In this document: positions 4,095-21,232 of the stretch, one piece after another
Layout: every line of letters begins with the position of its first letter
Numbering within the stretch: the stretch's first letter is position 1
Made by a program: the position numbers and the translations under genes
The notes under the pieces: generated by a model
Told to the model about the DNA's origin: nothing
The model's input: the letters and a program-made list of their open reading frames with translations, nothing else
Databases searched by the model: none
Assembly: GCA_903919125.1 (NCBI GenBank)
Contig: CAIXGS010000012.1
Coordinates: forward strand, 27,706 to 91,705
From: an uncultured Spartobacteria bacterium
GTDB lineage: Bacteria; Verrucomicrobiota; Verrucomicrobiia; Chthoniobacterales; Chthoniobacteraceae
Direction: 5' to 3'
Length of the DNA stretch: 64,000 nucleotides

Positions 4095-5723
4095 ATGAAA
4101 CAACGAATAAACAATCAGAAAGTCATCAACTGGCATGCTCCACGGAAAGTAGGAGCACTAAATGCATCTTATATTGCCAAGAGAACTCGAGGTGTGGAGG
4201 GTTTATCCATCAAACAGCGTGATGCAGCGGAGAATGGATATTTTTGTGTTTATTGTGACAGGTGGAGTTGCTACGACGGCGAAAACGTGATGCGGTGTAT
4301 CAGGTTAAGCGAAGCGGATTACGATATCATTGAATTCGCAGACGGCACGGAGGAGTTTGTGAATCGTATCGATAAAATATCTGAATTAAATTGGAAAAAT
4401 ATCGAACGAAAATTCGGCTTTTCAAATCCCATACTCTTTCCTCTGGAAATTATTGAGAACGCCAATGTCGCCCTTTTTGAGGGAGGAGCTGCTCCTAAAC
4501 GGATCCAGGAAGTGGATCTCGTAGGTCACTATCAGTGCTTGAAAACAGCTGCCCCACAGCATTCATGTACAGCGGAATTTGACCCTAGGGATGTGCTGCG
4601 CATTGAAAAGGTCTTGGGCTATGGTGCAGGCTCGAAATTAACAGGAGAGCGGTCATTTCTTGGTGAGAAATTCGATGCCACCTTTCTGGCATTATTTCTG
4701 AGATACAGCATCAGAAGTTTGTCCCATTTCAATGCTATTTCGGGCGACGCGCGGAAGGATTTTCAAAATCTGGCTGAGTATCTCTTTTGTGATTATCCCA
4801 TTCCCCAATGGTTGAAATCGGTGTGGGGAATCCCCAAGAGTACTTTTAAGGGGGATTTAAAACAGGCTATACAGTGGGCGCATTGGTTTATTTGTCTGGG
4901 ACAGGGGGGCAGTTTGAGAAAATTGTCCAAGCTCATGGGGGGAAGAGTATCGGGGAAGCTCGTACACTTCCTCTATGCGGCGCCCTCCCATTTGCGCCCT
5001 GAAATGGCCTGCGCCTGGGCTGAAGCCATGCGGATTTCGGGAAGTCGGCGCGTGGCAGACTGGATTTCTAAAAATCAGGGATACGCCATCGATCCCTCTT
5101 TGGTTCCAACAAGGAAGCACGACATGCGTTTTCGAAAATTCTGGCAGCAAACGGTAAAATGGTTCGCTAGATTTCAGGGTGAGCTTTCAAATGAGGTGGC
5201 GGCGGAATTGCTCGAATGGGGGAACGTTCGCTTCAGCGAGGATTCTAAGAAAAATATCCTCTTTTCATGGGCGGGGCGCACGCCTGCCAGCGCGCTGGGG
5301 GTGGCTCGCAGAGAACTGCCCCAATTCTTCAGAGGGTTGGGCGGGACGACGAATCTTCAATGGAGCCCTCTCGGAGTGAGTTGGAATTTGGAGACTACGG
5401 CTTTTGCGGGGGCAAAAACGGACGTTTGGACCTTCGTGGAGCTGACTCAGAGCAGCGCCTTGTGGGAGGAGGGCGTCGCAATGGGAAACTGTGTCGCGGG
5501 CTATGATAAGAAGTGCATGGTGGGCATTTCGGCGATTGTCTCGGTGAGGCTTAACGGGATGCGGGTGCTTACGGCTGAGCTGAACAGAAGAAGCAAGGCG
5601 GTTGTGCAGGTAAAGGGGCGTTTTAACAGGGAGCCCACGGAGGCGGAGTTAGCGGTAGTACAGCAGTGGCAGCAGGAGGCGGTGGTAGGGCGCAGGGGAG
5701 AGGTTTTTGCCCTGGCAGCATAG
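4095..5723 (+). CDS. hypothetical protein, possibly PcfJ-like (C-terminal MGNCV..Y motif)
   Basis: 542-aa ORF in a visibly lower-GC segment; the C-terminal EEGVAMGNCVAGYDKKC...VQVKGRFN is recalled from memory as resembling the PcfJ-like family (unverified). Confidence 0.5.
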   Translation: MKQRINNQKVINWHAPRKVGALNASYIAKRTRGVEGLSIKQRDAAENGYFCVYCDRWSCYDGENVMRCIRLSEADYDIIEFADGTEEFVNRIDKISELNWKNIERKFGFSNPILFPLEIIENANVALFEGGAAPKRIQEVDLVGHYQCLKTAAPQHSCTAEFDPRDVLRIEKVLGYGAGSKLTGERSFLGEKFDATFLALFLRYSIRSLSHFNAISGDARKDFQNLAEYLFCDYPIPQWLKSVWGIPKSTFKGDLKQAIQWAHWFICLGQGGSLRKLSKLMGGRVSGKLVHFLYAAPSHLRPEMACAWAEAMRISGSRRVADWISKNQGYAIDPSLVPTRKHDMRFRKFWQQTVKWFARFQGELSNEVAAELLEWGNVRFSEDSKKNILFSWAGRTPASALGVARRELPQFFRGLGGTTNLQWSPLGVSWNLETTAFAGAKTDVWTFVELTQSSALWEEGVAMGNCVAGYDKKCMVGISAIVSVRLNGMRVLTAELNRRSKAVVQVKGRFNREPTEAELAVVQQWQQEAVVGRRGEVFALAA

Positions 5724-5773: not shown

Positions 5774-6544
5774 TCACCGCCGTGGTTCGTCTGGAAAGGC
5801 GGCTTGCATTTCCATCTCATGCATGAGGCAGGCGAGTTCGTATCCGTATTCACTCCACTTTTCAGCCCCGAGTCCTTGAGTCCAACGACTAAGATTCGCA
5901 GTAGTCCCCAATTCGAAATCCTTATCTCTTCCCCACGCCATACATTCGGACTCCACATAACGCAACCAGACGGCACTGACGTCCTCGCGTTCCAGCATCG
6001 TAGTCACACCGTTCTTTTTGAAAAGCAGCCCATCATCCGCTGTACAAAAATCGACGTTATAAGCGGGGCTCTCAGGTGTTGCCTTAAAATGGAGACGTCT
6101 TGGAAGCATCCTTTTTAAGGGTTCCCAAAAGTCTTCTTGGCGTTTGGTCTCTAATTCTTTCAAGGCATGTTCTGCCAACATAATCAATGCCAATACTTTC
6201 CGAATCACAAACTCACCCGTTTTTCCCCAGCGATTGAGATCTTTGAAAAACTCCTTGAGTGTAATAGCGCTGTCCCCTCGCCGCTTCCACTTTTTGAATC
6301 GCTCCGAAAGACGTCGTAGATCGGCATTCGTAACCTCCATACACTCAGAAGTTACTGTGAATAATAAGTTATCCCCCTGACGCTTCACCGCATAGGTGGA
6401 GTCCTCAGGACTGTCATCGCTGAGATTGTGCCCAGCATAACCGTTGGCGAACATGATCATGACCCCGAGTACACGCTCGGGGTCTATCGAATCCTGGCAG
6501 TTGTCTTGAGTGGGGGGCGTATTGGTATCGCTCATGCCGCCCAT
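5774..6544 (-). CDS. hypothetical protein (256 aa)
   Basis: ORF downstream of and co-directional with the TIR-repeat gene; no recognisable domain. Confidence 0.4.
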   Translation of the reverse strand: MGGMSDTNTPPTQDNCQDSIDPERVLGVMIMFANGYAGHNLSDDSPEDSTYAVKRQGDNLLFTVTSECMEVTNADLRRLSERFKKWKRRGDSAITLKEFFKDLNRWGKTGEFVIRKVLALIMLAEHALKELETKRQEDFWEPLKRMLPRRLHFKATPESPAYNVDFCTADDGLLFKKNGVTTMLEREDVSAVWLRYVESECMAWGRDKDFELGTTANLSRWTQGLGAEKWSEYGYELACLMHEMEMQAAFPDEPRR

Positions 6545-6800
6545 TATAGCACTCGGCGTCTTAACTTAGCTCAAGCGGCCGCTGCTGTTGTCGGGCGTGT
6601 GTGAGACTGATGGTCGCAACCAGCCGCACGTCCACCGTATGAAACGCACGGGCGGGCGGATCGCCCAGTTTGTCGGCTTCAACGACGGGTACTGGGAAGG
6701 CGGCAATTACGAATGCATTCACGCTGAACCGTTTCTTTCCAAATTACTGCCCCTCATGGAAGACGGCGGCGACTATTTCACGGATCATTCCAAGCTTCTC

Positions 6801-9800
6801 TCACAACCCAGAAATATCATGGGGTAGAGTGAACTTCTCAATCAAGGTCACCCCGAGCGGGCCGGGTTTTAATGCGAATTTTAGAAGCGACGTTCCGCGC
6901 ATCACTTGCAGCTCAACTTCTGGGGCTGTAGTTGTTTTTTCTAGATCGGCAAACTGCTCTTGCGTGGTGATTTCAACGCCCGCGTAGCCACTGATTCTGT
7001 CGCCCTCAAGTAATCCAAACTGCGCGGCCTGACTTTCTCCCAAAATGCCAGCTACCACGAGAGCCGTGGGTTTTAGCAGCTCGCCGTCGACTCCAAGGTG
7101 CCACTCAATGCTGACATTTCCGCGCCCGTCGTATTCTTTGCGAAGCTCTGCGTAGCCGTCTTTATGTAAAGTGAGATTCCCGTCGACGCCGAAGTAGCTG
7201 GTAAGCGTGACATTGCCGTGGTCATCGAATTCTTGGCGAATCTCTGCATAGCCGTCCTTGAGCAAAGTGGGCTTGCCGTCAACTCCAAGGTACCCCTGAC
7301 GGATGACATTTCCGCGCTCGTCGTATTCTTGGCGGAGCTCTGCATAGCCGTCCTTGAGTAAAGTGGGCTTTCCGTCGACGCCAATGTACGACAGACAGAT
7401 GACATTACCGCGCTCGTCATATTCTTGGCGAATCTCTGCGTAGCCGTCTTTATGCAAAGAGGGCTTGCCGCCGACACCGAGATACCACCTGCGGGTAACA
7501 TTTCCGCGCCGGTCGTATTCATGGCGGATGTCTGCGTAGCCGTCCTTGTGTAAAGTAGGCCTGCCGTCGACGCCGAAGTAGCTGGTAAGTGTGACGTTTC
7601 CGCGCTCATCATATTTTAGGCGGAACTCGGCATAGCCGTCCTCGTGCAAAGTGGGCTTGCCGTCGACGCCAATGTAGCACCGGCGGGTAGCATTTCCGCG
7701 CTGGTCGTATTCCCGGCGAAACTCGGCATAGCCGTCCTTGAGCAAAGTGGGCTTGCCGTCGACGCCGAAGTAACTGGTGAGTGTGACGTTTCCGCGCTCA
7801 TCATATTTTAGACGGAACTCTGAAAAGCCGTTTTTGTGCAAAGTGGGTTTGCCGTCGACGCCAATGTACCACTCACGGGTAACATTTCCGCGCTGGTCGT
7901 ATTCTTGGCGGAACTCTGCGAAGCCGTCCTTGTGCAAAGTAGGCTTGCCGTCAACTCCACGGTAGCACCAGTAGACTGCGTTGTCTCGCTCATCGAATTC
8001 TTGGCGGACCTCTGCATAGCCGTTCTTGATCAAGGTGGGCTTGCCGTCGACGCCGAAGTAGCTGGTAAGTGTGACGTTTCCGCGCTCATCATATTTTAGG
8101 CGGAACTCTGCATAGCCGTCCTTGTGCAAAGTGGGCTTGCCGCCGACACCGAGGTACCACCTGCGGGTGGCATTTCCGCGCTCGTCGTATTCTTTACGGA
8201 TCTCTGCGTAGCCGTTCCTGTGCAAAGTAGGCTTGCCGTCGATACCAAGATAGCACTGACGGGTAACATTTCCGTACTCGTCGTATTCTTGGCGGAGCTC
8301 TACATAGCTGTTCTCGTGCAAGGCAGGATTGCTATCGACGCCCAGGTACCACCAATGGGTGACATTTCCGCGCTCATCGAATTCTTGGCGAATCTCTGCG
8401 AAGCCGTCCTTGTGCAAAGAAGGTTTACCATCGACGCCAAGGTAGAACCGACGGGTGACATTTCCGCGCTCATCGTATTCTGTGCAGAGCTCTGAGTGAG
8501 CATCCTTGTGTGAAGTAGGATTGCCCTCGACGTCAAAGTAGCACTGCCGAGTAACATTTCCGCGCTCATCGAATTCTTGGCGAAGCTCTGCGTAGCCGTC
8601 CTTGTGCAAAGTGGGCTTGCCGTCGACGCCAATGTACCACTCACGGGTAAGATTTCCGCGCTTGTCGTATTCTTGGCGAACGTCTGTGTAGCCGTACTTG
8701 TGCAAGGTGGGCTTGCCGTCGATGTCGAGGAAGCAGGTACGGGTGACATTTCCGCGCTCATCGAATTCTTGGCGAAGCTCTGCGAAACCATTTTTTAGGA
8801 AAGTGGGCTTGCCGTCGGCGCCAATGTAGCACGCACGGATGATATTTCCGCGCTCATCGTATTCTTGGCGGAACTCTGCATTTCCGTCTTTGTGCAAAGT
8901 GGGCTTGTTATCAACGCCGAGGTACCGCGTACGAGTAATATTACCGCGCGCATTGTATTCCAGGCGGAGCTCTGCGAAGCCGTCGGGATTTCTGATCGGT
9001 TCGCTCCGCAGATCCAAGTATCGCACTGCGGTCATTACACCGTTGGCGTTACGTACTCGATGTACCGATGCTACGCCATTTTTGCCGGCGATTTTCACCA
9101 GCGTCCGCTTTTTGAATTCAATGAAGTTTTCGGAAATCCTCAATCCATTCCCATCGTACGTGTAGGCAATGCCTCCCACTCCATTGGCATCCCTTGTCGT
9201 TTGATTGTAAGAGTTTTTACAATACATAACATGGTCAATCAGACCACTGGCGCCATAAGCGCGAAGATGACGGACGATTTCCGTACGAGCTGTGTAATCC
9301 TTTTGCTTACCAAAGCCTGAGTTTGTAAATGACGGGAGCGCACTCTCCACTCCCTCTTTGGCTGAGACGAAGTCGACGATTTCAAGACGTTCGCCGCTTA
9401 GACGCTGCGTGCTTAGTACCCGCGCTTTTTGATTTATTTTTCCGTTGGGAAGCAGCGCTTTTTCGTCCAGCAGGTCCAACCGTTCAAGCCGGGTCTCTTT
9501 TTCGCCAGCGTACGTACACTTCAGCGCTGTGAAGCCGAGGTAATCGGACTCCCCATTGTACACTGGTTTACCCGTTCCGTTGACATAGGCAACAAGCCGC
9601 AGGCGGTTTTTGCGGTAAATCATCTGGTAAGAGCCCGAGCGTCTGGCCGCCTCCTGGGCGGAGATATGGAAGACGCCCTCTGGCATCCCCCAACGCAGCG
9701 TGAAATCTTGAAAGTAAAACGATTTCTCACGCCAATAATAATCCCAAGCCCACCATCCGCCCGTCATAAGCGCCATGGCTAAGGTTACAATCAAAGAACC

Positions 9801-10403
9801 GAAGAAACGCTGGCGCCTGAGAGCCAGTCGCTTGTGTCGCTCATAGAGTTGATCAAAACGCAGCCCCAAAATGGCAGCCACCACCTTTAAGACAATGCGT
9901 TCTCGATCATACTCCGCCATGGATGCCCCGAGGATTTCATGCGAAAGACTAGGGGGATAAGTGTGTGCGGGCACCGCCAAGGCGGGATCAGTTTCACAAA
10001 TCACGGGCACAATGCAGTCCTCACGCCCAAGTTCGTAAAAATGCTTAATTTCGCGTGCAACCCATTCCGAGGCGGCGGACTTTCGGGAGCAAAGCACGAT
10101 AAGAAAACGGCTGTCATCAAGTTCGCGCCGCAAATGCCTAGTGAGACTCCCGGCGCTCAGGTCGGTCTTGTCTCTAAAAACGGGGCGAAGAGATCGCGGC
10201 AGGTGCCCCCCGGCTTCCTTCTGAATCGAAACGGGGAGCCGGTACGCCTCTAAAGCATGCTGTAGCCATTTGGCCGTGGATTCGTCGGCGTGGGAATAGC
10301 TAATAAAAGCGTGGTAAGTGAAGCGTTGCGAACTCATGGAGGTTCTTTTTTCGCGCTTAAAGACAAAGAAACATTTTTGAACAAAGCCAGCGTTGAGACC
10401 CAA
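6801..10403 (-). CDS. giant TIR-domain membrane protein: N-terminal TIR, one TM helix, about 20 tandem 32-aa YD-like repeats, C-terminal PDZ-like domain; likely true start ATG at 10337 (listed start is TTG)
   Basis: TIR signature FISYSHADESTAKW...FLIVLCSRKSAASEWVAREIKHF; TM FFGSLIVTLAMALMTGGWWAW; repeats of GYAEFRQEYDERGNVTRxxYxGVDGKPTLHKD; C-terminal VVAGILGESQAAQFGLLEGDRISGYAGVEI...VELQVMRG PDZ-like. Confidence 0.85.
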   Translation of the reverse strand: MGLNAGFVQKCFFVFKREKRTSMSSQRFTYHAFISYSHADESTAKWLQHALEAYRLPVSIQKEAGGHLPRSLRPVFRDKTDLSAGSLTRHLRRELDDSRFLIVLCSRKSAASEWVAREIKHFYELGREDCIVPVICETDPALAVPAHTYPPSLSHEILGASMAEYDRERIVLKVVAAILGLRFDQLYERHKRLALRRQRFFGSLIVTLAMALMTGGWWAWDYYWREKSFYFQDFTLRWGMPEGVFHISAQEAARRSGSYQMIYRKNRLRLVAYVNGTGKPVYNGESDYLGFTALKCTYAGEKETRLERLDLLDEKALLPNGKINQKARVLSTQRLSGERLEIVDFVSAKEGVESALPSFTNSGFGKQKDYTARTEIVRHLRAYGASGLIDHVMYCKNSYNQTTRDANGVGGIAYTYDGNGLRISENFIEFKKRTLVKIAGKNGVASVHRVRNANGVMTAVRYLDLRSEPIRNPDGFAELRLEYNARGNITRTRYLGVDNKPTLHKDGNAEFRQEYDERGNIIRACYIGADGKPTFLKNGFAELRQEFDERGNVTRTCFLDIDGKPTLHKYGYTDVRQEYDKRGNLTREWYIGVDGKPTLHKDGYAELRQEFDERGNVTRQCYFDVEGNPTSHKDAHSELCTEYDERGNVTRRFYLGVDGKPSLHKDGFAEIRQEFDERGNVTHWWYLGVDSNPALHENSYVELRQEYDEYGNVTRQCYLGIDGKPTLHRNGYAEIRKEYDERGNATRRWYLGVGGKPTLHKDGYAEFRLKYDERGNVTLTSYFGVDGKPTLIKNGYAEVRQEFDERDNAVYWCYRGVDGKPTLHKDGFAEFRQEYDQRGNVTREWYIGVDGKPTLHKNGFSEFRLKYDERGNVTLTSYFGVDGKPTLLKDGYAEFRREYDQRGNATRRCYIGVDGKPTLHEDGYAEFRLKYDERGNVTLTSYFGVDGRPTLHKDGYADIRHEYDRRGNVTRRWYLGVGGKPSLHKDGYAEIRQEYDERGNVICLSYIGVDGKPTLLKDGYAELRQEYDERGNVIRQGYLGVDGKPTLLKDGYAEIRQEFDDHGNVTLTSYFGVDGNLTLHKDGYAELRKEYDGRGNVSIEWHLGVDGELLKPTALVVAGILGESQAAQFGLLEGDRISGYAGVEITTQEQFADLEKTTTAPEVELQVMRGTSLLKFALKPGPLGVTLIEKFTLPHDISGL
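7073..8984 (-). repeat. in-frame 96-bp (32-codon) tandem repeat array, about 20 units, high nucleotide identity between units
   Basis: Periodic ORFs with the same 32-aa periodicity appear in all other frames on both strands across this interval (frame shadows of a DNA-level tandem array). Confidence 0.8.
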
Positions 10404-10478: not shown

Positions 10479-12602
10479 TCAATCGGCTTCCGTCGTCGAA
10501 AATTCAATTAACAGCGGATCGATTCGGAAGGGATTAGAAAGGGGGAACATAAAGTAAGTGCCACCGGCGCGCACCGGCATCCCAGTGACGATGTGTTCGA
10601 TGATGCCGTCGGAGGTCGTTGCCCTGATCACTCGGCGGTTCCACGAATCAATGGTGATGGTTTCCACTCGGATGATTTTTGGGTAAATGGGTTGTGATGT
10701 GGCCCAGTCCGTATCCCAGAACCGTAGAAGTTCGAGCGTTTGATCCAAAAATTCCGCCGCTTTTCCGCTGAGATCATTTTGGCTATTATCGCTGAGTCGG
10801 TCATGAGCGAATATATTCCTTAGATTTGTGATGCTGTCGAACCCCCGCGGGGCAAGACGTTTTGCCGTGAGTGGTGCGTCAAGGTATCCCCGCTTTTCCG
10901 GTGGCGCATTGTCGAGATCCTTGGCCAACCTTTCCAAAAGACCGAGAAGTTGCCCCAGAGAGAGAGAGCTAAGCTTCCGGCTTTTGACTTCAGGAAGCTG
11001 CAGGAAGTGCTTTTCCGGGCCGCATTTATAGACTTGCAAGCAAATGAATCGGAGAAGGTTTCGGATGCTTGACTCGAGATGACTGCTAGCCTCGATTACC
11101 AGTCCTGCGCGCTCGTTGTATCCGGAAATCGGAAGTTTTGAGCGAATCGCTGTTACATGCTTGTGTGCAAAGGAAATGCCCTCCAATGGTTCTGGGAGAG
11201 GAAACCCAAGCTCAGAAAGGATTAAGACCGCAAGCTCGTCGGTGCTTACCGTTATTTTGGGAGTAAGCTTGTACTTGTCTCGGAGGATTCGACGCAATTG
11301 AGTCGCTCCGAGGCGCCTCAGAATTTCCATTGGATCAAGACGCGCGCAGTATTCTTTGAGGCGGAACAGCCGTTCGCCTTTGTACTGAAGTTCGTCCAGG
11401 AGAAGTTCCAGCTCTTGAGCCTCGGCCTCGGGTAGGGCGCTTAGTAATGCCACGAGGTTGTCCACATGCTGCATTTCGTGCCTGTGCGTATGGTTGGCGG
11501 GTTCGTGAAGCGATCCTCCGATTTTAGGGGAGGCGGGACGACTTGCCGATGAACTGGCTATGGAGGGCCGAGGATTGTGCTCTTCATCTGCGGCTAGGGG
11601 GGCGTTGAGTCCTTGTGTGCGCGCTAATTCAGTCTGGGGATCGGGTTCCCCTATCTGTTTAATCACGAGAGGGATTTTACTGACTCCTCCTTGGACGGCC
11701 TTCGCAAAGTATTTTTGTGCTATGGTCAGGAGCGCCACCACTCCCTGATTAAGGGTCTCAATCAACTCCCCATCGACGGAAATTAGACCGTGGACGACTT
11801 GGTTTCGTGCAAAGATTGCCTGCTCTACGGAAGTATCCAGACCGAGTGGGATCTTTGTTCCTCTTTTAGTGCTCGCTTCGCTGAATTCATGCCAGATGGT
11901 TTTTAATCCCTTTTTCTCTGGAAATTCGATGTTAAACACCCTGGCGCACCCATGCATAATGTCCTCAATGCGCGTGGTGATTGTCCGTATGCGAGTTTGC
12001 TCGTCACAAGCGAAGTCTCCGGGGGAGGTAGCGCTAAAAACATCTATGTGTTTGAAGTTCTCCTCCAGTGTTGGACAGCCTTCCAACGTGGCTACCGTAA
12101 TTTGGATGCCGCTGAAACCCACGTGTGTTGCAAGCCGCGACACCGCCGTCACTATGGCGCTCATGGACATTTTGGCGGTTCCAGTCCCGACCAAGGGCAT
12201 CAATACACGAGGGGGCGCATCTGGGTGTTTTTGCCTGAGAGACAGGATGGCGTCCCCGAGATTGCTGATAAAAGTGTGGGCGTCTGCGATCGAAACACTA
12301 ATTCGGGTGTCGAGATCCAAGGTGATTGCATGAAGCACTGCTATGGCAGGAAGTGCGCCAGCCGCAGTTTCAACGGTGCTTCCCACTTGAATGGGAGTTT
12401 TTAGGGACTCACGGATCGATTGGTTGAGAGCAGCAACTCCTGCGGATTGCCAAATGTCTCTAGCGGAGCCCCCAGCATGGGACAGATAGTTGTCATCGGA
12501 GGAAATTACGGCAAGCCACGGCCCGTCGCTTTTCGCGATGGCGCCAATCTCTCCAACAAGCACCTTATGGCGTAGGGGGTACATTATATCGTTTTTGTCC
12601 AC
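10479..12602 (-). CDS. Macro-domain protein with C-terminal RNxxxH (HEPN-like) motif; listed start is GTG, alternative ATG at 12584
   Basis: N-terminal AVISSDDNYLSHAGGSARDIWQSAG ... GSTVETAAGALPAIAVLH matches the Macro/ADP-ribose-binding fold (compare [25 protein letters not shown]); C-terminal NLRNIFAHDRL gives an RNxxxH motif; no TM segments. Confidence 0.8.
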   Translation of the reverse strand: MDKNDIMYPLRHKVLVGEIGAIAKSDGPWLAVISSDDNYLSHAGGSARDIWQSAGVAALNQSIRESLKTPIQVGSTVETAAGALPAIAVLHAITLDLDTRISVSIADAHTFISNLGDAILSLRQKHPDAPPRVLMPLVGTGTAKMSMSAIVTAVSRLATHVGFSGIQITVATLEGCPTLEENFKHIDVFSATSPGDFACDEQTRIRTITTRIEDIMHGCARVFNIEFPEKKGLKTIWHEFSEASTKRGTKIPLGLDTSVEQAIFARNQVVHGLISVDGELIETLNQGVVALLTIAQKYFAKAVQGGVSKIPLVIKQIGEPDPQTELARTQGLNAPLAADEEHNPRPSIASSSASRPASPKIGGSLHEPANHTHRHEMQHVDNLVALLSALPEAEAQELELLLDELQYKGERLFRLKEYCARLDPMEILRRLGATQLRRILRDKYKLTPKITVSTDELAVLILSELGFPLPEPLEGISFAHKHVTAIRSKLPISGYNERAGLVIEASSHLESSIRNLLRFICLQVYKCGPEKHFLQLPEVKSRKLSSLSLGQLLGLLERLAKDLDNAPPEKRGYLDAPLTAKRLAPRGFDSITNLRNIFAHDRLSDNSQNDLSGKAAEFLDQTLELLRFWDTDWATSQPIYPKIIRVETITIDSWNRRVIRATTSDGIIEHIVTGMPVRAGGTYFMFPLSNPFRIDPLLIEFSTTEAD

Positions 12603-12705
12603 GTCCTGAGTCCTTTTAGGTCGAGTTATTTCGGAGATCGAATCTGCACAGTTGTGGATGACGCAGGGCTTTATTGCTGAAACTCTGTCCTAGGTGCGCC
12701 TCCAG

Positions 12706-12906
12706 CTAATGCTCATCTCGGAAAACTCTGCGAAAAGACCTCAGGACGGCACCTTTTCGCGTAGGCATCCCGATCAAATTCTTTGGGATTTGGTAACTCT
12801 CCAGCTTCCGATGAAACCGTGAGGCATCCTGCTTGTCCGCTTGGCTGTAGCTTGTGCATATCCAGTAGTTTCGGGATGAACGATTGTCTGTTTCCTGATG
12901 ACTCAT
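12706..12906 (-). pseudogene. truncated TIR-domain gene fragment (N-terminal about 55 aa of a TIR, then stop)
   Basis: Translation ICTSYSQADKQDASRFHRKLESYQIPKNL...RSFRRVFRDEH aligns with the N-terminus of the full TIR protein (FISYSHADESTAKWLQHALEAYRLPVS...RSLRPVFRDKT); homology does not continue in any frame after the stop. Confidence 0.5.
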
Positions 12907-13381
12907 GGGTGCTGATTATTGGCAAAAACGCTTTTCTTCTCTCGATCTTCGAGCTCTGAAAGGCAGGGATTTAAAAGTTTTTAAAGCGTCATAATTTCGC
13001 TTTTTGAGAACAAGTACCATTTTGCTTCACTCTTGCAGGGTAACGTTACAATGGGGTCGACTTTTGCCCAATCTCCTCAGGGCCGTCGAGCGAAATTAGA
13101 CCATTATGCGCCGGTTTAGCAGGCCGTTCACCAGTGCGGTATGCTCGGCTATGGCGGATAGCCAACGGGAAGCCGCAAGGGTGAAGTGACTTCCCCCGTC
13201 GTGCGCAGTTTACTTCAGAAAATTGCGGGTATTCGCGGAAATCCAAGGGACGCGCATTCATTTTGGGATAGGCGGGAGGTACCTCCCTTAGCCGAGGATT
13301 CTTTTTAGAAAAAGTCAGGCATCTCCGGAAAACGAAGAAAACACGCCTTTCATACCCGTAGAAGCAAAACACCCCAGAAGC

Positions 13382-13609
13382 ATGAACACACCAACCCAAG
13401 CACCAATCCCCAGGGAAATTGAGCAGTTTTTAGCCGATACAGTTTCCCAAGCGCAGCGTGCAGTAGACCAAGCCGTCGAGGGCTTCGAAGCCGAACAACA
13501 GCCCCGTCCATTCCAATTTGATTCGGTGGAGGAATGGCACGCGATTGATGCCGTCTTGGAGCGTTGGTTGCAGCCCAACGAGCGGCGCCGGCACTCCGAT
13601 GCCGCTTGA
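13382..13609 (+). CDS. small helical hypothetical protein (75 aa), paralog of the ORF at 25676..26026
   Basis: Shares a FLA..QA...EW..DA.L..WL pattern with the small ORF at about 25.8 kb. Confidence 0.45.
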   Translation: MNTPTQAPIPREIEQFLADTVSQAQRAVDQAVEGFEAEQQPRPFQFDSVEEWHAIDAVLERWLQPNERRRHSDAA

Positions 13610-13815
13610 TGTGCAACACTCAAGCTAATGCAAACTAAAACAAAAAATTTAAACCACATACCCATCCATCCCATGCCAAACCCAAGCGATTCCAGCTCCA
13701 GGCTGCCCCTTGGCCAAAACTCGTAACCTAAAAGATTGCCGTAAGGATTAGTACGAGCTGGAGGAACCCATTTACAACGCCCCCTCCGTTCTCGGATCGG
13801 GCGACTTGTAGCGCG

Positions 13816-15816
13816 TCAGTAGGGAAACGCTTTTTGGGGGTCAACGGTGAGGTCGCCTTGCGTACGGCGGGTCCATTCCTCCCAAAATAAAGGGGCAAAC
13901 GTGTCCGCAGGAATTTTAGATAGAACCTCGAGTTGCAGCTCGTGCGGGAAAAGCGGCGACCGGCCTGCCTGGGTGAAGAGTTCGTTGGCCTGCAGCAGGA
14001 TGCTGAGATAAATCACTTGGATCAAGGGGCCTTCGGCTTTGTTGAGAAGTTCTTCCGCCTTTTTGAAATCCGCCTCTGCTTCAGCAAACTTTCCAGAAGC
14101 GGCGAACAAAGTGCCTCGGTATTTCAGCGAGGTTGCAGTGAGCCAGTTATCGGATGTATTGCGGGGGGAGACTACTTCAAGAGAGGCGAAATTATCTTCG
14201 ACCCTCCCTTGCTGCTTCCATAACCGATAAGCAGCAAGCAATCGATGCCGGCTCAAAAAAGCTAGGCTGACCGGGTCTGCCGCAGCCAGCGCCTCTAGAT
14301 CGCTTCTGACTTGTTTTTCGACCTCCGCGATCTGATCCGGTTCAAAAAGTGCCGTCCACAATGCAGTGCGAACGGTCGACTTGGAGTAATGGTATCGATG
14401 CGAATCAACGGCTCCGCAATTCTGAATCAGTTGCAAAGCGATTTGGGCTGCTTCTTCCAAACAGGCTTTCGACTCCTGCTCGCACCCCGAACCCCTGAGC
14501 GCTTTGAAAAGAAGCACTTCACCACCCAGCGCCCCGATGGCTCCCAGCTTGTGCAAAAGGTAATCCTCTTCTGAACCAAAGGTCGCCGCTTCGATTTCGG
14601 CCACCAATTTTCTCCCCACCTGCTCCGCGTCCTCGAGCATCATGCGGTCCGAAAGGGAGACGACAAACTGATTGATCGCTTGAAAGCGGTCCAATGCGCT
14701 GTGCCTCCAGTTGGTGCCCAAAATTTGGCGGAAGTACGCATCCGCACGTGCGGCATGGCCGGAGTGATTGTCAATCGCAGCGAGAATGACAAGGGTCTTG
14801 AGGTAGGCGGGACGCTGCTTCTTGCCATTGGCATCGAGCCACTGCTGCCATTTTTCCGCACGACCCCTCGCCGTCTCGTAATCCACAGTCTTCCGTTCGA
14901 CTTGCGCTTCCAGGGAGGCGGCTTGCGCCAAGATTGAAGCCTCGCTCAGATGCACACCATGGTGTTCCAACGCCTCTTCCACGATCCCTCGCGCTTCGTT
15001 GAGCGAGGTTCCCCCAGAAAAAAATACGCCTCCCGAAACGCTTGGCGATGATCCGACTGTGAGCCAAAGCTGGACTCCGAGTTTTTCGGCGAGCTTTTGT
15101 TTAGCCCGCAGCCCTTCAACAGGTTTCAGACGTCCTTCGGCAATCGCGCCCGAGGCCAGCCAACTGAGCGCATCCACACCACGGTTCATCCAGTAAAAGG
15201 CGAGCCACACAGGCAGGGCAAAACTTCCTCCAACGAGCACATTCCCCGCGACAGGTTGGACACACGACAAAGTGATCCGCCACCCTTTGTTGCTGAGCGC
15301 TGCTGCGAGCCCCTCCCCGCAATCCTCCCACGATGGAACCCTCTGACAGGCTTCGTCCAAAATTACTATCCCATCTCGAGAACCGCTTTCCGATTTCAAC
15401 ATGAAAGGAACTGGAAATGCTTCCCCAGCGGCGTCCACCACAGGGATCAAACCGTGCGCCTGTTCAAAAGCTGATTTTCTTGCGTTAAACTTCTGCAGCG
15501 TGAGTTTGTCTGAATCGGCGAGAAGCGAGCACAGAGTCAGCACCGTGTGAAAGCTGTCGCGCTTGAAATCCGGTGCGAGGTGTTTCACGGCAATGGACAC
15601 GACCGGCCCTGCGTTCGACAAAGCATCGATAACGGATTTCGGCGTGTTCTTGCCATACAACCACAGTCGACAGAGCAATTCGCCCTCGACGGCAGCCTGC
15701 GCCTCAGGCGAAAGAGCATGGCCGCTCTGTAGCAGACTGACGAGGGCGTCGTCTGAAAAGAATCCGACATCTAAAAGGGAATCCCTCAATCGTTTAAATA
15801 AATCTCGAGGCGTCAT
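13816..15816 (-). CDS. large protein with Lon-protease-like (S16-like) domain and TPR-like helical C-terminus (paralog P1)
   Basis: VGGSFALPVWLAF...SWLASGAIAEGRLKPVEGLRAKQKLAEKLGVQLW resembles the Lon S16 core (DGPSAG...AMTGEITLRG.VLPIGGLKEK...G.K) with Ser and Lys retained; paralogous to 19022..21232. Confidence 0.7.
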   Translation of the reverse strand: MTPRDLFKRLRDSLLDVGFFSDDALVSLLQSGHALSPEAQAAVEGELLCRLWLYGKNTPKSVIDALSNAGPVVSIAVKHLAPDFKRDSFHTVLTLCSLLADSDKLTLQKFNARKSAFEQAHGLIPVVDAAGEAFPVPFMLKSESGSRDGIVILDEACQRVPSWEDCGEGLAAALSNKGWRITLSCVQPVAGNVLVGGSFALPVWLAFYWMNRGVDALSWLASGAIAEGRLKPVEGLRAKQKLAEKLGVQLWLTVGSSPSVSGGVFFSGGTSLNEARGIVEEALEHHGVHLSEASILAQAASLEAQVERKTVDYETARGRAEKWQQWLDANGKKQRPAYLKTLVILAAIDNHSGHAARADAYFRQILGTNWRHSALDRFQAINQFVVSLSDRMMLEDAEQVGRKLVAEIEAATFGSEEDYLLHKLGAIGALGGEVLLFKALRGSGCEQESKACLEEAAQIALQLIQNCGAVDSHRYHYSKSTVRTALWTALFEPDQIAEVEKQVRSDLEALAAADPVSLAFLSRHRLLAAYRLWKQQGRVEDNFASLEVVSPRNTSDNWLTATSLKYRGTLFAASGKFAEAEADFKKAEELLNKAEGPLIQVIYLSILLQANELFTQAGRSPLFPHELQLEVLSKIPADTFAPLFWEEWTRRTQGDLTVDPQKAFPY

Positions 15817-15827
15817 ACTGGGAGTCT

Positions 15828-16784
15828 TTATCGCGTCTCGGTCGTGACATTCAGCGCAGTTCCGTTGAGGACGAGTGAAAACGCGCCTCTGAAGTTTTGC
15901 GCTGGGACGGAACAGGAATGGCCTTTGAACACGCCTAAAAGGGAGCCATCGCCGTCTCGGATTTCACATCCGTCGAGAGCTGTGGACTCGTGCCCAGTTG
16001 CATCGAACACGTTGAACGTCGCGCTGGAACCCGCCTTCGCCCGCGCGTCGACATCAACCGACACGCCTAGTGATTCCACGATAAACGCCTGGTGGAAGCT
16101 GGGTGCCCCCTCGTCAGCGTACAAGCGCACCATCGCTGCGGCCCATTCATCGCCAAAATCGACTTTTATTACGTTTGGTTCGATACGGACCTCTGTTTCC
16201 CTGTCACCCACTGGCGCAATCCATCCCTCAAGCGGGCGTTGCAGATACGCAATTTCATTCGCTAGATTTTTGTGGAATGCGATTCGCGTGTCTAAATAGT
16301 CCAGCGGAGGAATTCCGCGCACGACCTCTTCCGGACATTCATCTCCCTTGCCTCCGAGCCAAGCGGAAAAGTCGCTCAGAATCTGTATTTCCTTCTCGGG
16401 CAGCAGAGTCACAAAACTGCTTAAAGCATCTGCCGGGACCGATAGCTCCAAGCCAACAGCGACGACGGGAGTGAATCCAAGCAGTTCGCGCAGGAGAATC
16501 GCGTCGGACGCGTCGGCCATCGTCGGATCGCTGAAAAGCGGAGCAACGGCAAAAAGTGTGCCTTCGGACAGTTCCATTCGGCGGAGTACCACAACCCAGT
16601 GGGACGCCTGTTCCTCTTCGGAAAGCGCGGAATCTGGGGTCGTTGTCCAAATTTCACCGGGGCTGGCGAAATTCGGTTCTCGGTCTTCTTGAAAGGATTG
16701 CAGCGTCGACTTTGATTCAAGAATAGGGCGCGTCTCGGCTAGTAGCCTCTCGATCGCCATTTCTTCAGAATTCGGAATATTCAT
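15828..16784 (-). CDS. hypothetical protein (318 aa), co-operonic with P1
   Basis: 12-bp spacing to the downstream P1 gene; no recognisable domain. Confidence 0.55.
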   Translation of the reverse strand: MNIPNSEEMAIERLLAETRPILESKSTLQSFQEDREPNFASPGEIWTTTPDSALSEEEQASHWVVVLRRMELSEGTLFAVAPLFSDPTMADASDAILLRELLGFTPVVAVGLELSVPADALSSFVTLLPEKEIQILSDFSAWLGGKGDECPEEVVRGIPPLDYLDTRIAFHKNLANEIAYLQRPLEGWIAPVGDRETEVRIEPNVIKVDFGDEWAAAMVRLYADEGAPSFHQAFIVESLGVSVDVDARAKAGSSATFNVFDATGHESTALDGCEIRDGDGSLLGVFKGHSCSVPAQNFRGAFSLVLNGTALNVTTETR

Positions 16785-16815: not shown

Positions 16816-18015
16816 CTAAATTTCCGAAATTTTGTGCTCAAGAGCGGTGTTCGACGGAGTTTGCTCTGAGTTATCGCCGCCGATGGAAGCTGAGGAGGTC
16901 AACGCTCCCCCGCAGTGATGGCGACAATGTTTCTCTGCTGCGTCCACAGCTTGTCGTCGGAGTGTTTCCTTCCAAAAGTTGAAGGCGATCCGCTCCTCCA
17001 GTGTCATGTGTAGTTTGTAGGACTCAAACTCCTCGCGCTTCAGGATATAATCATCCTCCTCAACATACTTGTAATCAACAAAGTCCGGAAGATAGGTGAC
17101 TAAAATTTTTGCGATTTTTTTTGTTTTCTCTCCAATCCTCCGAGCGTCGCCTAGTCCGGCGAGGATTACCGCGTCACCCAGTACGCGTTTCGGGTAAAAG
17201 TAATTGACATAAACGTCGCACAGTTTTTCCGCGCACAGCCGTTCTCCAATTAACTCACCTCTCTCGTAAATCTGTCCTTCCAGAATTTTTGTGACGTAGT
17301 CGGAAGGTCTTTCATCCTCAGAATTACCCACATCAAAGTCGACCTCGTCTTCGGAATCGCTTCCTTTTGAAATTCTGACAACCTTTAAGAGCGATGTTTT
17401 TATACACATCGCTTCGTGGATCAGCTTCATCTGAAGCGGGCAGTCCACATTGCCCAATAATTCCATCACGAACGCCTTCGCCTGAGTCGGCGCCACCAAT
17501 TTGCGTCCCTCATGAGCAGGCGGCGGGATATGCTCCATTTTCGCAAGCGCTTTCACAAAGCGGAGGTCGTTGCTCCTCTCACATGGCCGCTGATTCGCGG
17601 CAGACGCTGGGGACCACCACAATTCGTCGGCATGCTTTGGCCTCCCCACATTGCCCATGAAGACCTGTTTGCTTTTCTGCAGGTCCAGAAGCGCTTCTCG
17701 GCAGATATCCCATACTTCAGCCGATGCTGGATCGCTTAATTTCTTGAGTAACCGGCCCATCTGCATCCTAACCCCGGCCCTGTTGTTTAGCAGCACGTTG
17801 CGTGTACGCTGAATGTCCGCGAGGAAATCGTGGGCGAGATCCTCGCGCGTCAGTTTGGCGGCGCCTCCTTCCTTGCCACGCAGCACATGATCGGCGACGT
17901 CTTTTAACTCCCGGTAAAATTCGAGAAACGAAGCGTAGGAGGCATCCGACGGCGTGATGTCACTGTAATGACCGGCCACATAATCGTGAAAGAACTTGTT
18001 CCAGTTTAGAGCCAT
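16816..18015 (-). CDS. hypothetical protein (399 aa), first gene of the P1 operon
   Basis: 32-bp spacing to the next gene on the same strand; acidic central stretch; no recognisable domain. Confidence 0.55.
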   Translation of the reverse strand: MALNWNKFFHDYVAGHYSDITPSDASYASFLEFYRELKDVADHVLRGKEGGAAKLTREDLAHDFLADIQRTRNVLLNNRAGVRMQMGRLLKKLSDPASAEVWDICREALLDLQKSKQVFMGNVGRPKHADELWWSPASAANQRPCERSNDLRFVKALAKMEHIPPPAHEGRKLVAPTQAKAFVMELLGNVDCPLQMKLIHEAMCIKTSLLKVVRISKGSDSEDEVDFDVGNSEDERPSDYVTKILEGQIYERGELIGERLCAEKLCDVYVNYFYPKRVLGDAVILAGLGDARRIGEKTKKIAKILVTYLPDFVDYKYVEEDDYILKREEFESYKLHMTLEERIAFNFWKETLRRQAVDAAEKHCRHHCGGALTSSASIGGDNSEQTPSNTALEHKISEI

Positions 18016-19021: not shown

Positions 19022-21232
19022 TTGTATTTTGTATCAAGTTGCGATGTTTTTCCTTTCCTCCTTGGAGGCTGTAGGGGCAGGTTTGCAGAGTATTTCGGAC
19101 TCAATATCCGCCCAAATCCTCACCACAAACCACGCCCCGTTCCCATGCCATCCCCTGACGCCGCCGCAAATTATCCTCATTCTGGCTCGAAAGTCTGTTT
19201 CATGTCAGACGAGGAGCTTGCCAAACATTTGCTTCAGCCCTCTACCGGAGAAACAAGCGACTCAAACGCAGTAGCTGCTGAGGTCCTTTTCAGATTGTGG
19301 CTCTACCGTGGGGGGTGCCCAGATTCGATCAAACAAGCGGCGGCGGCTTTTGGGAAGGAGCACCCCGAATTCTATAGTTTTGTCACCCTCAAGTTGGTTC
19401 CTGTCCGCGGAAAGGCCCAGGGAGAAGATGAGTTAGACGAGGAGTCCGTACTGGAAAAGCGCTCAGGGGAAAACAAAGAGGCAAAACGCGCGGTTCCAAT
19501 TGGCAGCGTCGAAGCGCTTTTAACTGAGCGACTCAGGCAGTTTCGTTCGGCGCATGGCATCATTCCTTTGGTGCTGCACGAAGGCGGCCCTGCCTTTCCC
19601 GTGCCGTTTCAAATCTCTGTGGGAAAGCGTGGCATTCACACGTTTTTAGATGCGGGTGGTACTCCTCTGGATTCTTGGGGGGAACACTTTGCGCCGGTTT
19701 TGGAAATCCTCGAAACAGATTCAGGCGTGAGAATGACCTCGGGCTTCCCAAACGGGGAGGACGACATTGCCTACGAAGAGGGCGGCTTCGCGTTGCCGGT
19801 AGCGCTGGCCCTCGACAACTTGGAAAATTACTTGGAGATCGATCCGCTCAGCGTTTTGGCAACGGGGGCCATCGTGCACGGTCGTGTGGTTTCTGCAAAA
19901 GCTTGCGCCGCAAAAGCTGCGCTCGCCCGTAAAATGGGAGTGGAGCTTTGGGTCCAGCCAGACCCTTGCGACCACGACACGAACGCTCCGCATCAAGTCC
20001 TGGCGTTGGGCAACGATCAACCGTTGCTCAAAGCGCTGGAGTTGATCCGCCACAGCCTCGCCGGAATCGGGAAGGCTCGACCGACTGCACGCCACGCACG
20101 CGAAATCATTGCGCGTTACCGTAAAATTCCGCCCTCGAGATTGCGTGACATCCAAAAAGCCATTGTGATGGTTGAGAGTCATTTAAAAGTGCTCGTTGAC
20201 GAAGGAATTGACTATCTCCTACCGACCATTGCGGACGCATACATTCTTTTGGCGTCCCTTCACAATCATACGGGGAATGCGATAGTTGCCGACAAGGTGC
20301 TTGACGACATCCAACCGCACATCAAAGGCGACAAGGTGCGCATGTGTGAACTATATGCCCACAGAGTTGTTGCGCTCACGGACATGGGGCGTCTAGCTGA
20401 TGCGGAAAAGCTCGGCCGCAAGGCTCGTGAGATCGCCGGCACGCTGGATATCCTCGTGCATGGACAGGCGGAGGCTCTCGTTCAAACCACCGGTTCCCTT
20501 GGCGGGGAAGCGCTGCTCCACAAGGCGCTGCGAACCGGCAACGTAGCCGACTCGGACGAGGCCTACGGACTTCTGAACATCACCCTAGACATCACCGAAG
20601 AACTCGCCCAATCCGGTCACCAAACGCCTCATGTGGACGCCGATCTTTGGTACGCAAAAAGTGCGGTGCGCTATGTGCTTTGGCACGCGTATTTCACGCC
20701 AACGAAAATCACGGATCGAGTCAAAGAGTATGAACCGTTCGTCGAGGCGCCGCGTCTGGCGGGGAAGTACGACATCAGCGAGGAGTACCTAAAGCGGACG
20801 CATTTTCTCGGCGGTTACCGCGCTCTATTGGCGGGGAAGCCGCCCGCACATTCAGAGTTTACCACTTGGCCCCTGCCGTCTCTGCAGGACGGCGCGCCGG
20901 AATGGTTGGTCGCAACGGCGTTGAAATATCGCGGTGCGTTAAAGGCGCATTACGGCGATGCCGGCGCCAAGGCGGATTTTGAGGAAGCGGTTAAACTCCT
21001 GCGAGGCAACCAGCACGCCACTTTGCGGGTGATCCTATGGAGCATTGCGGCCGAGGCGAGATTGAGCGGCATCGCCTCACCGATTTTTGAGCGAGTCTTG
21101 GCTGAAGGAATTTACGACGTCGTGGACTATCTGTCCTGGGACGGCTCGATGGCCGGCTTAATCGACAAGTTGCTCAGCGGCAAATTCGGTGACGCGGATC
21201 TCGCAGAGTTCCGACGCAAGTTTGCGTATTAG
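19022..21232 (+). CDS. large protein with Lon-protease-like (S16-like) domain, catalytic Ser position replaced by Gly (paralog P2); likely true start ATG at 19202
   Basis: EEGGFALPVALAL...SVLATGAIVHGRVVSAKACAAKAALARKMGVELWV aligns to the same Lon-like core as P1; shared LWLY N-terminal motif and GIIPLV/AFPVPF block. Confidence 0.7.
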   Translation: MYFVSSCDVFPFLLGGCRGRFAEYFGLNIRPNPHHKPRPVPMPSPDAAANYPHSGSKVCFMSDEELAKHLLQPSTGETSDSNAVAAEVLFRLWLYRGGCPDSIKQAAAAFGKEHPEFYSFVTLKLVPVRGKAQGEDELDEESVLEKRSGENKEAKRAVPIGSVEALLTERLRQFRSAHGIIPLVLHEGGPAFPVPFQISVGKRGIHTFLDAGGTPLDSWGEHFAPVLEILETDSGVRMTSGFPNGEDDIAYEEGGFALPVALALDNLENYLEIDPLSVLATGAIVHGRVVSAKACAAKAALARKMGVELWVQPDPCDHDTNAPHQVLALGNDQPLLKALELIRHSLAGIGKARPTARHAREIIARYRKIPPSRLRDIQKAIVMVESHLKVLVDEGIDYLLPTIADAYILLASLHNHTGNAIVADKVLDDIQPHIKGDKVRMCELYAHRVVALTDMGRLADAEKLGRKAREIAGTLDILVHGQAEALVQTTGSLGGEALLHKALRTGNVADSDEAYGLLNITLDITEELAQSGHQTPHVDADLWYAKSAVRYVLWHAYFTPTKITDRVKEYEPFVEAPRLAGKYDISEEYLKRTHFLGGYRALLAGKPPAHSEFTTWPLPSLQDGAPEWLVATALKYRGALKAHYGDAGAKADFEEAVKLLRGNQHATLRVILWSIAAEARLSGIASPIFERVLAEGIYDVVDYLSWDGSMAGLIDKLLSGKFGDADLAEFRRKFAY

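Follow-up and report, generated by a model that had tools for sequence, protein, structure and literature searches.

The window analysed here, a stretch of 64,000 nucleotides (nt) from an uncultured Spartobacteria bacterium, contains on its minus strand (10479..12602, stop codon at 10479-10481) a complete gene for a protein of 707 amino acids (aa). Based on the list of open reading frames (ORFs), homologues and an AlphaFold2 (AF2) model, this protein consists of a Macro domain, a first HEPN-like domain, a helical domain, a second HEPN-like domain and a C-terminal β-barrel. We propose that the Macro-HEPN protein probably represents a novel type of effector that serves TIR-based (Thoeris-like) antiviral signalling and, on balance, we favour the view that it acts as a soluble, signal-gated ribonuclease (RNase) within such a defence module. 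The domain identities and the gene order were computed, and we infer every functional step by analogy with known systems. If the proposal holds true, TIR/ADP-ribose immune signalling would gain an RNA-degrading output; to date its Macro-sensor branch has been known to act only through a membrane-pore effector. The protein would then correspond, on the ADP-ribose side, to the CARF-HEPN enzymes of type III CRISPR.

The ORF corresponds to a real, conserved gene, since exactly the same 707-aa protein is encoded on 18 public contigs, which come from several samples and agree in their gene order, and since four homologues with 62-69% identity span its full length. Its GTG start is backed by the MDK N-terminus, which is conserved in P0002, a 67% identical homologue. 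A word-indexed protein search yielded only five to six close homologues, even when a 100-sequence alignment served as the query; it was an exhaustive HMMER search, comparing a profile of residues 186-707 with 1.84 billion representative proteins, that revealed the family. The profile matched 235 proteins at E ≤ 1e-3 and 72 at E ≤ 1e-30. Most of these proteins are 600-830 aa long, and the C-terminal 330 residues are common to nearly all of them. Family members share about 25% identity, and conservation was counted over 100 full-length members, aligned with a mean column identity of 14%; the invariant columns are G409, G550, R595, H600, P641 and D652. Judged by its sequence, the 340-residue C-terminal module (helical domain, HEPN and barrel) is a distinct, uncurated family with at least 235 clusters at 50% identity, for which Pfam has no model. 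Most of the family belongs to genomes of uncultured Myxococcota-like, Planctomycetota, Holophagales and Lentisphaerota bacteria; the metagenome-assembled genomes (MAGs) in which members were found are labelled Polyangiales, delta-proteobacteria, Holophagales, Lentisphaerota and Planctomycetota. Scanning genome contigs with a profile of the main-clade alignment produced 10 MAG loci, in none of which a TIR gene adjoins the family member, the same scan with the close-relative alignment gave no match, and no member was found in the viral contigs scanned for the family.

The AF2 model, built on the 100-sequence alignment, has a mean predicted local distance difference test (pLDDT) score of 87.3 and a predicted template modelling (pTM) score of 0.86. 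In this model a Macro domain (residues 10-190) is followed by a helical region (201-331), a disordered segment (336-372), a five-helix domain (378-465), a second helical region (476-629) and a barrel (642-701). The initial annotation had regarded the roughly 500 residues behind the Macro domain as unassignable by eye except for one motif, which is outdated rather than wrong, as they can now be divided into five parts: HEPN-like domain 1, a disordered linker, the helical domain, HEPN-like domain 2 and the β-barrel.

HEPN-like domain 2 (residues 476-632; 10707..11177, minus strand) is the conserved core of the family and comprises helix 495-525, inserts, helix 589-599, a loop and helix 611-629. 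It contains the motif NLRNIFAHDRL (10794..10826, minus strand; codons of the Rx4H motif at 10803-10820), the second Rx4H motif of the protein (R595, N596 and H600) and, judging from its translation and its invariance, the putative catalytic site. The motif had been pointed out in the initial annotation and is indeed present: R595 and H600 are kept in 100 of 100 relatives and N596 in 99 of 100, the invariance extends to a set of 121 sequences, and the three residues are the best-conserved polar positions of the entire protein. An R....H string alone is weak evidence, because about one is expected by chance in 700 residues; the protein has three. It is the conservation of R595-N596-x3-H600, not its mere presence, that exceeds chance.

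HEPN domains have four features according to a survey of the superfamily (PMC3710099). The R of their Rx4-6H motif is followed by a polar residue (N/D/H); the motif lies where core helix 3 of a four-helix bundle ends and the loop to helix 4 begins; helix 2 carries an acidic residue, often within E-x3-[KR]; and inserts separate helices 2 and 3. All four features are found in domain 2, in its sequence and in the AF2 model. E510, which is 97% conserved (D in the remainder), sits in the long helix 495-525 and is part of an E510-x3-R514 arrangement in the window protein; the column of R514 is R/K in 44% of the sequences. The DSSP assignment of the model shows that helix 589-599 stops before H600, the first loop residue, that helix 611-629 comes next, and that helical inserts lie at 529-583, between core helices 2 and 3. 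We regard a HEPN fold with a functional Rx4H site as quite likely.

Pfam searches of 66 family members give faint signals that converge on the same answer. Besides Macro and ThsA_Macro, the only Pfam families matched by more than one of the 66 at E ≤ 1 are HEPN_RiboL-PSP (five members) and HEPN_Apea (two). The best sub-threshold HEPN matches are to HEPN_AbiU2 (E=0.0024, one member), HEPN_RiboL-PSP (0.029) and HEPN_Apea (0.039), and the window protein's own match to HEPN_RiboL-PSP (E=0.36) covers residues 586-610, which is exactly the motif. A single-sequence Pfam search at E ≤ 1 with the C-terminal 343 and the middle 179 residues gave no match; the consensus of domain 1 has its best Pfam match in DUF4145 (E=0.03), which was classed as HEPN in the 2013 survey (PMC3710099). 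With DUF4145, RiboL-PSP-HEPN, Apea-like and AbiU2 proteins (PMC3710099) the family shares RN...H, E-x3-[KR] and the defence-island setting, all matches being below the Pfam thresholds. What points to HEPN membership is the motif, the topology and these faint, convergent matches.

HEPN-like domain 1 (residues 196-335; 11598..12017, minus strand) was delineated by AF2, hhalign and the Pfam match of its consensus, and contains helices 201-222, 233-246, 253-270 and 278-302, among others. Its Rx4H motif, RNQVVH (R266-H271; 11790..11807, minus strand), was identified from the translation and from column counts. It is placed like the second one, at the end of helix 253-270, with H271 as the first loop residue and helix 278-302 behind it; the acidic residue of this domain is E213 (E/D in 61%). 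The motif is intact in the window protein, its conservation in the family is partial (R 89%, N 71%, H 66%), and about one third of the relatives have lost it, including P0010, P0011 and P0013, in which the middle domain is missing. When the two domains were compared by hhalign (score 28.5, P=1.2e-4), the Glu-bearing helices and the RNxxxH motifs aligned in register, far above the controls (60 column shuffles scored at most 11.7, other domain pairs 7-16.5), and the protein thus carries two homologous HEPN-like domains. A middle RNxxxH that is a mere chance string was considered and is rejected on the same grounds. Given that many relatives do without the first motif, catalysis probably centres on HEPN-2, with HEPN-1 as its regulatory pseudo-partner. 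The suggestion in the initial annotation that the protein ends in a HEPN-like domain thus stands as regards motif and topology, and needs revision in that there are two such domains rather than one, followed by an OB-like barrel.

The C-terminal part is not confined to Macro proteins. P0124, a protein of 1161 aa from a metagenome, has a Ser/Thr protein kinase (Pkinase, 1.1e-76) instead of the Macro domain and the same C-terminal module behind it. As the kinase replaces the Macro domain, the C-terminal part may be the constant effector and the N-terminus an exchangeable regulator; the helical-HEPN-barrel part would then be an effector cassette that can move between proteins.

The N-terminal domain (residues ~10-190; 12033..12575, minus strand) has a MacroD/YmdB/Af1521-like fold, as indicated by Pfam matches of relatives, a profile comparison with the PDB, Foldseek and conservation. 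For the window sequence alone the evidence is sub-threshold: its Pfam Macro match (residues 38-145) has E=0.0043 and 17.4 bits against a cut-off of 22, and its match to PDB entry 2dx6 has E=0.22. At the level of the family, the assignment made in the initial annotation is secure, because 61 of the 66 members match Pfam Macro (best E 1.9e-17) and the 100-member profile matches the solved macrodomains of PARP14 (1.5e-28), TTHA0132 (6.9e-24) and YmdB (7e-20). The AF2 model, with pLDDT >90 over residues 10-190, has the three-layer α/β/α macro fold and superposes on TTHA0132 (2dx6), YmdB and Af1521 with a Foldseek probability of 1.0 and a template modelling score of up to 0.82 (2dx6). A Foldseek search of the full model against the PDB gave 176 matches at E ≤ 0.001, and the best 50 of the 176 are all macrodomains, led by TTHA0132, YmdB, PARP14 macro 1 and Af1521.

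With these MacroD-type macrodomains the family shares the fold and both phosphate-binding loops; it differs in the signature, which reads NAAN...GGGV[D]xAI[H] there and SSDD...GGGVSxA[LI]W here. In the alignment to 2dx6, the Macro loop VISSDDNYLSHAGGS is equivalent to the canonical VNAANxxLxxGGGV, and the family form of the extended VNAANxxLxxGGGV[D]xAI[H] is VSSDDNYLSHGGGVSxA[LI]W. The phosphate-binding glycine loops are kept (G44/G45 ~90%, P136 95%, G139/G141 ~80%). The equivalents of N174, D184 and H188 of MacroD1, which we take to be its catalytic residues, are D37, S/V46 (S46 in the window protein) and W51. Because the glycine loops are kept while the presumed catalytic positions are replaced, the sequence favours a Macro domain that binds an ADP-ribose-type ligand rather than hydrolysing it.

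The TIR link suspected in the initial annotation is one of gene context, seen in the window and in two close relatives. Downstream of the Macro-HEPN gene and co-directional with it lies a TIR gene (6801..10337, minus strand; 1178 aa from MSSQRF), which was recognised by its Pfam TIR match and its repeats and is the candidate signal generator. The gap between the two genes is 141 nt, without a terminator-like site. The TIR domain is N-terminal (Pfam TIR_2 6.7e-15, ThsB_TIR 4.9e-10), PADLOC gives weak ThsB matches for the protein, and behind the TIR domain there are one predicted transmembrane (TM) helix and about 20 YD-type (RHS/YD) repeats over some 950 residues, seen in the DNA at 7079-8984 as a 96-nt unit present 19.9 times with 74% matches. 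A PDZ_6 match at the C-terminus is sub-threshold (E=0.0033, 17.6 bits against a cut-off of 27). In the order of its parts the protein resembles a Toll-like receptor. Gene calls in public contigs also give 1178 aa, and a 913-aa version of the TIR protein occurs in other samples; either the repeat number varies or assemblies collapse the repeats.

Directly upstream of the Macro-HEPN gene, BLASTP and a TIR hidden Markov model (HMM) identified a 66-codon remnant of a second TIR-TM gene (12706..12906, minus strand). It is 62% identical over 65 residues (BLASTP E=9e-28; TIR HMM E=2e-6) to the start of a 545-aa TIR-TM protein encoded at L001:204-1841, whose intact gene sits at the exact position of the remnant in this related locus. 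The SYSHAD motif reads SYSQAD in the window remnant. In a further locus, L003, the homologue is followed downstream by a TIR-DnaJ_C gene, and on the short contig of L002 no TIR gene was found. Thus, in three of the four loci of the close subclade (window, L001 and L003) the gene adjoins a co-directional TIR gene, in three architectures and on either side. Such differing architectures and positions are the pattern expected of a functional pair.

An effector adjoining a TIR gene is a feature of Thoeris-type operons. The effector of type II Thoeris recognises, through its Macro domain, an ADP-ribose (ADPR) conjugate produced by the TIR protein (His-ADPR, or IAD/ADPR); this ligand makes the effector oligomerise and thereby activates it (PMC11204291; bioRxiv 10.64898/2025.12.03.692087). 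That effector is the TM-Macro protein ThsA, renamed ThsC, with ThsB as its TIR partner, and the likeness to the window lies in a Macro protein encoded beside a TIR gene. The two differ in that the type II effector is a membrane pore, whereas the window protein has no TM segment in the AF2 model and instead carries a double HEPN and a barrel; moreover, the place of ThsB is taken here by the 1178-aa membrane TIR protein with its YD repeats.

By this analogy, the neighbouring membrane-anchored TIR protein would, upon infection, turn NAD+ into an ADPR-derived signal, which the Macro domain would bind without hydrolysing it. Binding of the ligand would then alter the conformation or the oligomeric state of the protein, such that a composite HEPN site could form, either within a single chain, from HEPN-1 and HEPN-2 (the Cas13 arrangement), or between two chains, from their HEPN-2 domains (the Csm6 arrangement). 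Metal-independent cleavage of RNA, aided by the OB-like barrel and the basic helical domain, would finally stop translation and abort the infection.

A number of observations weigh against this reading. No adjacent TIR gene was detected in 16 other distinct loci of more distant relatives, the closest case being a TIR_2 gene on the opposite strand of L017, at a distance of 3.6 kb, and the neighbours of these relatives differ from locus to locus. In the window itself, the partner TIR gene upstream has been lost while the Macro-HEPN gene is intact, and the TIR protein that survives differs from typical ThsB in being large and membrane-bound. The Macro domain is, in its modelled fold, MacroD-like rather than specifically ThsA-like; PF20016 (ThsA_Macro) has no match in the window protein and only weak matches in four of the 66 relatives. 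A PADLOC scan of the Macro-HEPN protein and seven of its neighbours matched the former to no family. As to the HEPN domains, no curated HEPN family was matched at the Pfam gathering score by the 66 members or the domain consensus, the profile of the 340-residue C-terminal module hit only chance CheY sequences in the PDB at E~1, and the placement of the motif was read from the secondary structure of a predicted model. Foldseek of residues 196-707 against the PDB, a kind of check that the initial annotation had proposed, returned nothing significant (E ≤ 0.001) besides local OB-fold matches.

Several of these points would fit a self-contained sensor-effector, in which the Macro domain switches on the HEPN RNase upon detecting ADP-ribose, an ADP-ribosylated protein or nucleic acid, or products of NAD+ breakdown. 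Any origin of these ligands would do, with phage ADP-ribosyltransferases and other NADase defences as examples, and the TIR genes would be mere fellow residents of a defence island. Most relatives are without an adjacent TIR gene and have diverse neighbours, the upstream TIR gene of the window has decayed beside a Macro-HEPN gene that is intact on 18 contigs, and the Macro domain is of the general MacroD type. Such a role is harder to reconcile with the adjacent co-directional TIR gene, of varied architecture and position, in three of the four subclade loci. In addition, the gene behind that of P0014 has a weak nucleoside deoxyribosyltransferase match, which recalls the macro-specific ThsB subfamily, whose active site resembles deoxynucleoside-processing enzymes (PMC11204291). 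Finally, TIR detection in the distant loci was insensitive, as it used a four-sequence HMM and Pfam on selected ORFs; the lack of TIR genes near distant relatives is only weakly established, because the home-made HMM recovered just its own source TIR genes and the window remnant. We see the self-contained sensor as the main alternative, if a tentative and rather unlikely one. A more elaborate version of TIR signalling, which we consider doubtful, is an outside-in pathway. Here, a membrane protein shaped like a Toll-like receptor, with a cytoplasmic TIR domain, one TM helix, external hypervariable YD repeats and a possible PDZ domain, would sense a cue from the envelope or the extracellular space and make an ADPR-derived messenger for a cytosolic, Macro-gated, Cas13-like double-HEPN RNase, whose C-terminal module would be a portable cassette that lineages couple differently, to a Macro domain, a kinase, or partners such as a DHH-like membrane protein or a further HEPN protein.

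Two further explanations do without a HEPN RNase. The Macro domain might be an enzyme, a de-ADP-ribosylase or O-acetyl-ADP-ribose deacetylase, and the helical region a non-catalytic RNA- or protein-binding scaffold, for example of a YmdB-like regulator of another RNase, or of an RNA-end repair or de-modification factor. This would agree with the public annotation of relatives, which, where there is any, reads 'O-acetyl-ADP-ribose deacetylase (regulator of RNase III)' or 'hypothetical protein', and with the closest folds, which are those of the enzymes YmdB, Af1521 and MacroD1/2. It sits poorly with D37, S/V46 and W51 at the positions of the N, D and H that we assume to be catalytic in MacroD, and with the kinase of P0124, which replaces the Macro domain while the C-terminal module is kept. 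Some HEPN domains are non-catalytic, but these typically lose Rx4-6H (PMC3710099), whereas R, N and H of motif 2 are invariant here. The enzymatic role was thus judged less likely, and we hold it to be improbable. It would be equally improbable that the C-terminal region is a non-HEPN helical bundle whose R-N-x3-H has another role, such as ligand or phosphate binding. The form of the motif, its position in the secondary structure, the upstream E-x3-R, the inserts between core helices 2 and 3 and the weak matches to four HEPN Pfam families all agree with HEPN instead.

The logic of a signal-gated Macro-HEPN RNase is anticipated by known systems, namely by sensor-plus-HEPN effectors and by TIR/Macro signalling. 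Csm6/Csx1 of type III CRISPR combine a CARF sensor for cyclic oligoadenylate with HEPN; the window protein instead has a Macro domain, for which an ADPR-derived ligand is expected, two HEPN-like domains per chain and an OB-like barrel. Cas13 is similar in that two Rx4H-bearing HEPN domains are found in one chain, so that an intramolecular composite site is possible. It differs in its CRISPR RNA-binding architecture, which the window protein lacks, and there is no detectable homology beyond the HEPN fold. A full-text literature search found no paper on a Macro-HEPN fusion, and the 2013 HEPN survey notes an operonic association with Macro only for the pEK499_p136 family (PMC3710099). A 2025 survey of 29 Thoeris configurations (bioRxiv 10.64898/2025.12.03.692087) mentions RNase effectors in general; in its text and in the supplements considered, HEPN is absent and Macro appears just as the type II effector. 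The host lineages of the family are under-sampled by surveys centred on relatives of E. coli and Bacillus. According to the 2025 survey, no enzyme-based assay for His-ADPR exists. An RNase that a ligand switches on through a Macro sensor could also be used to report the presence of ADPR derivatives made by TIR proteins.

The remaining parts of the protein lie between and behind the HEPN-like domains. A low-complexity linker (residues 336-372; 11487..11597, minus strand) is predicted to be disordered (pLDDT <50), and is poorly aligned and of variable length among relatives. It is followed by the five-helix domain (residues 373-475; 11178..11486, minus strand; AF2 helices within 378-465, pLDDT >90), with the consensus GYRG..RLLE.CVR..DP and LA..LL..LGFP and near-invariant G409, E417, L436, G466 and F467. 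The domain has no Pfam or PDB sequence match, the sole weak Pfam match of its consensus being DUF4129 (E=0.0025). Residues ~433-465 form a helix-turn-helix-like pair that by eye is SAP/HeH-like. The C-terminal five-stranded small β-barrel is OB/SH3-like (residues 636-707; 10482..10697, minus strand), and no other stretch is better conserved in the family (DxWNRR..., YFMxPLSNPxRxDP).

The neighbourhoods of the more distant relatives contain other candidate partners. In L007, the family member lies between a divergent CARF-like (Csa3_N) Csm6-HEPN gene (6461-7894, minus strand) and a STAND NTPase (10594-13698, plus strand); this MAG thus has neighbouring genes for two different sensor-HEPN proteins. 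Other neighbours are FHA and PLD-helicase-DUF3427 genes (L008), VWA (L014), radical SAM (L013) and housekeeping genes (L006). In the P0016/P0018 subclade, a 512-aa protein without a Pfam match is encoded directly after the Macro-HEPN gene (L018:2593-4131, plus strand; L019:3880-4467), and in L017 (1-573) the same protein is found ~5.4 kb upstream of it. Its own LRNRAAHD (RNxxxH) sequence makes it a candidate for an additional HEPN-like partner. In another subclade, comprising P0008 and a Holophagales MAG, the gene is paired with that of a 784-aa DHH-like membrane protein (L004:196-2550, plus strand, with a 4-nt overlap; L012:2441-3403, plus strand). It has an IIDHHH motif, a weak DHH match (E=0.05) and C-terminal hydrophobic helices, and could be a different signal-making or signal-degrading partner.

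In the window, the stretch between roughly 4 and 25 kb has the look of a defence or mobile island. Besides the genes described above, it contains a PcfJ-like gene (4095-5723) and a 1122-aa STAND-type NTPase (21189-24557, plus strand; NPHP3_N, 1.7e-7). The locus is flanked by two paralogues of 666 aa (13816-15816, minus strand) and 736 aa (19022-21232, plus strand), which are 30% identical (E=3e-40), have a C-terminal TPR-like part and are without a Pfam, PADLOC or PDB sequence match. Their shared motif, GGSFALPVxLA...A[ST]GAI..GR..P, is reminiscent of Lon-type protease domains. Two unannotated genes of 318 and 399 aa (15828-16784 and 16816-18015, minus strand) adjoin the paralogues.

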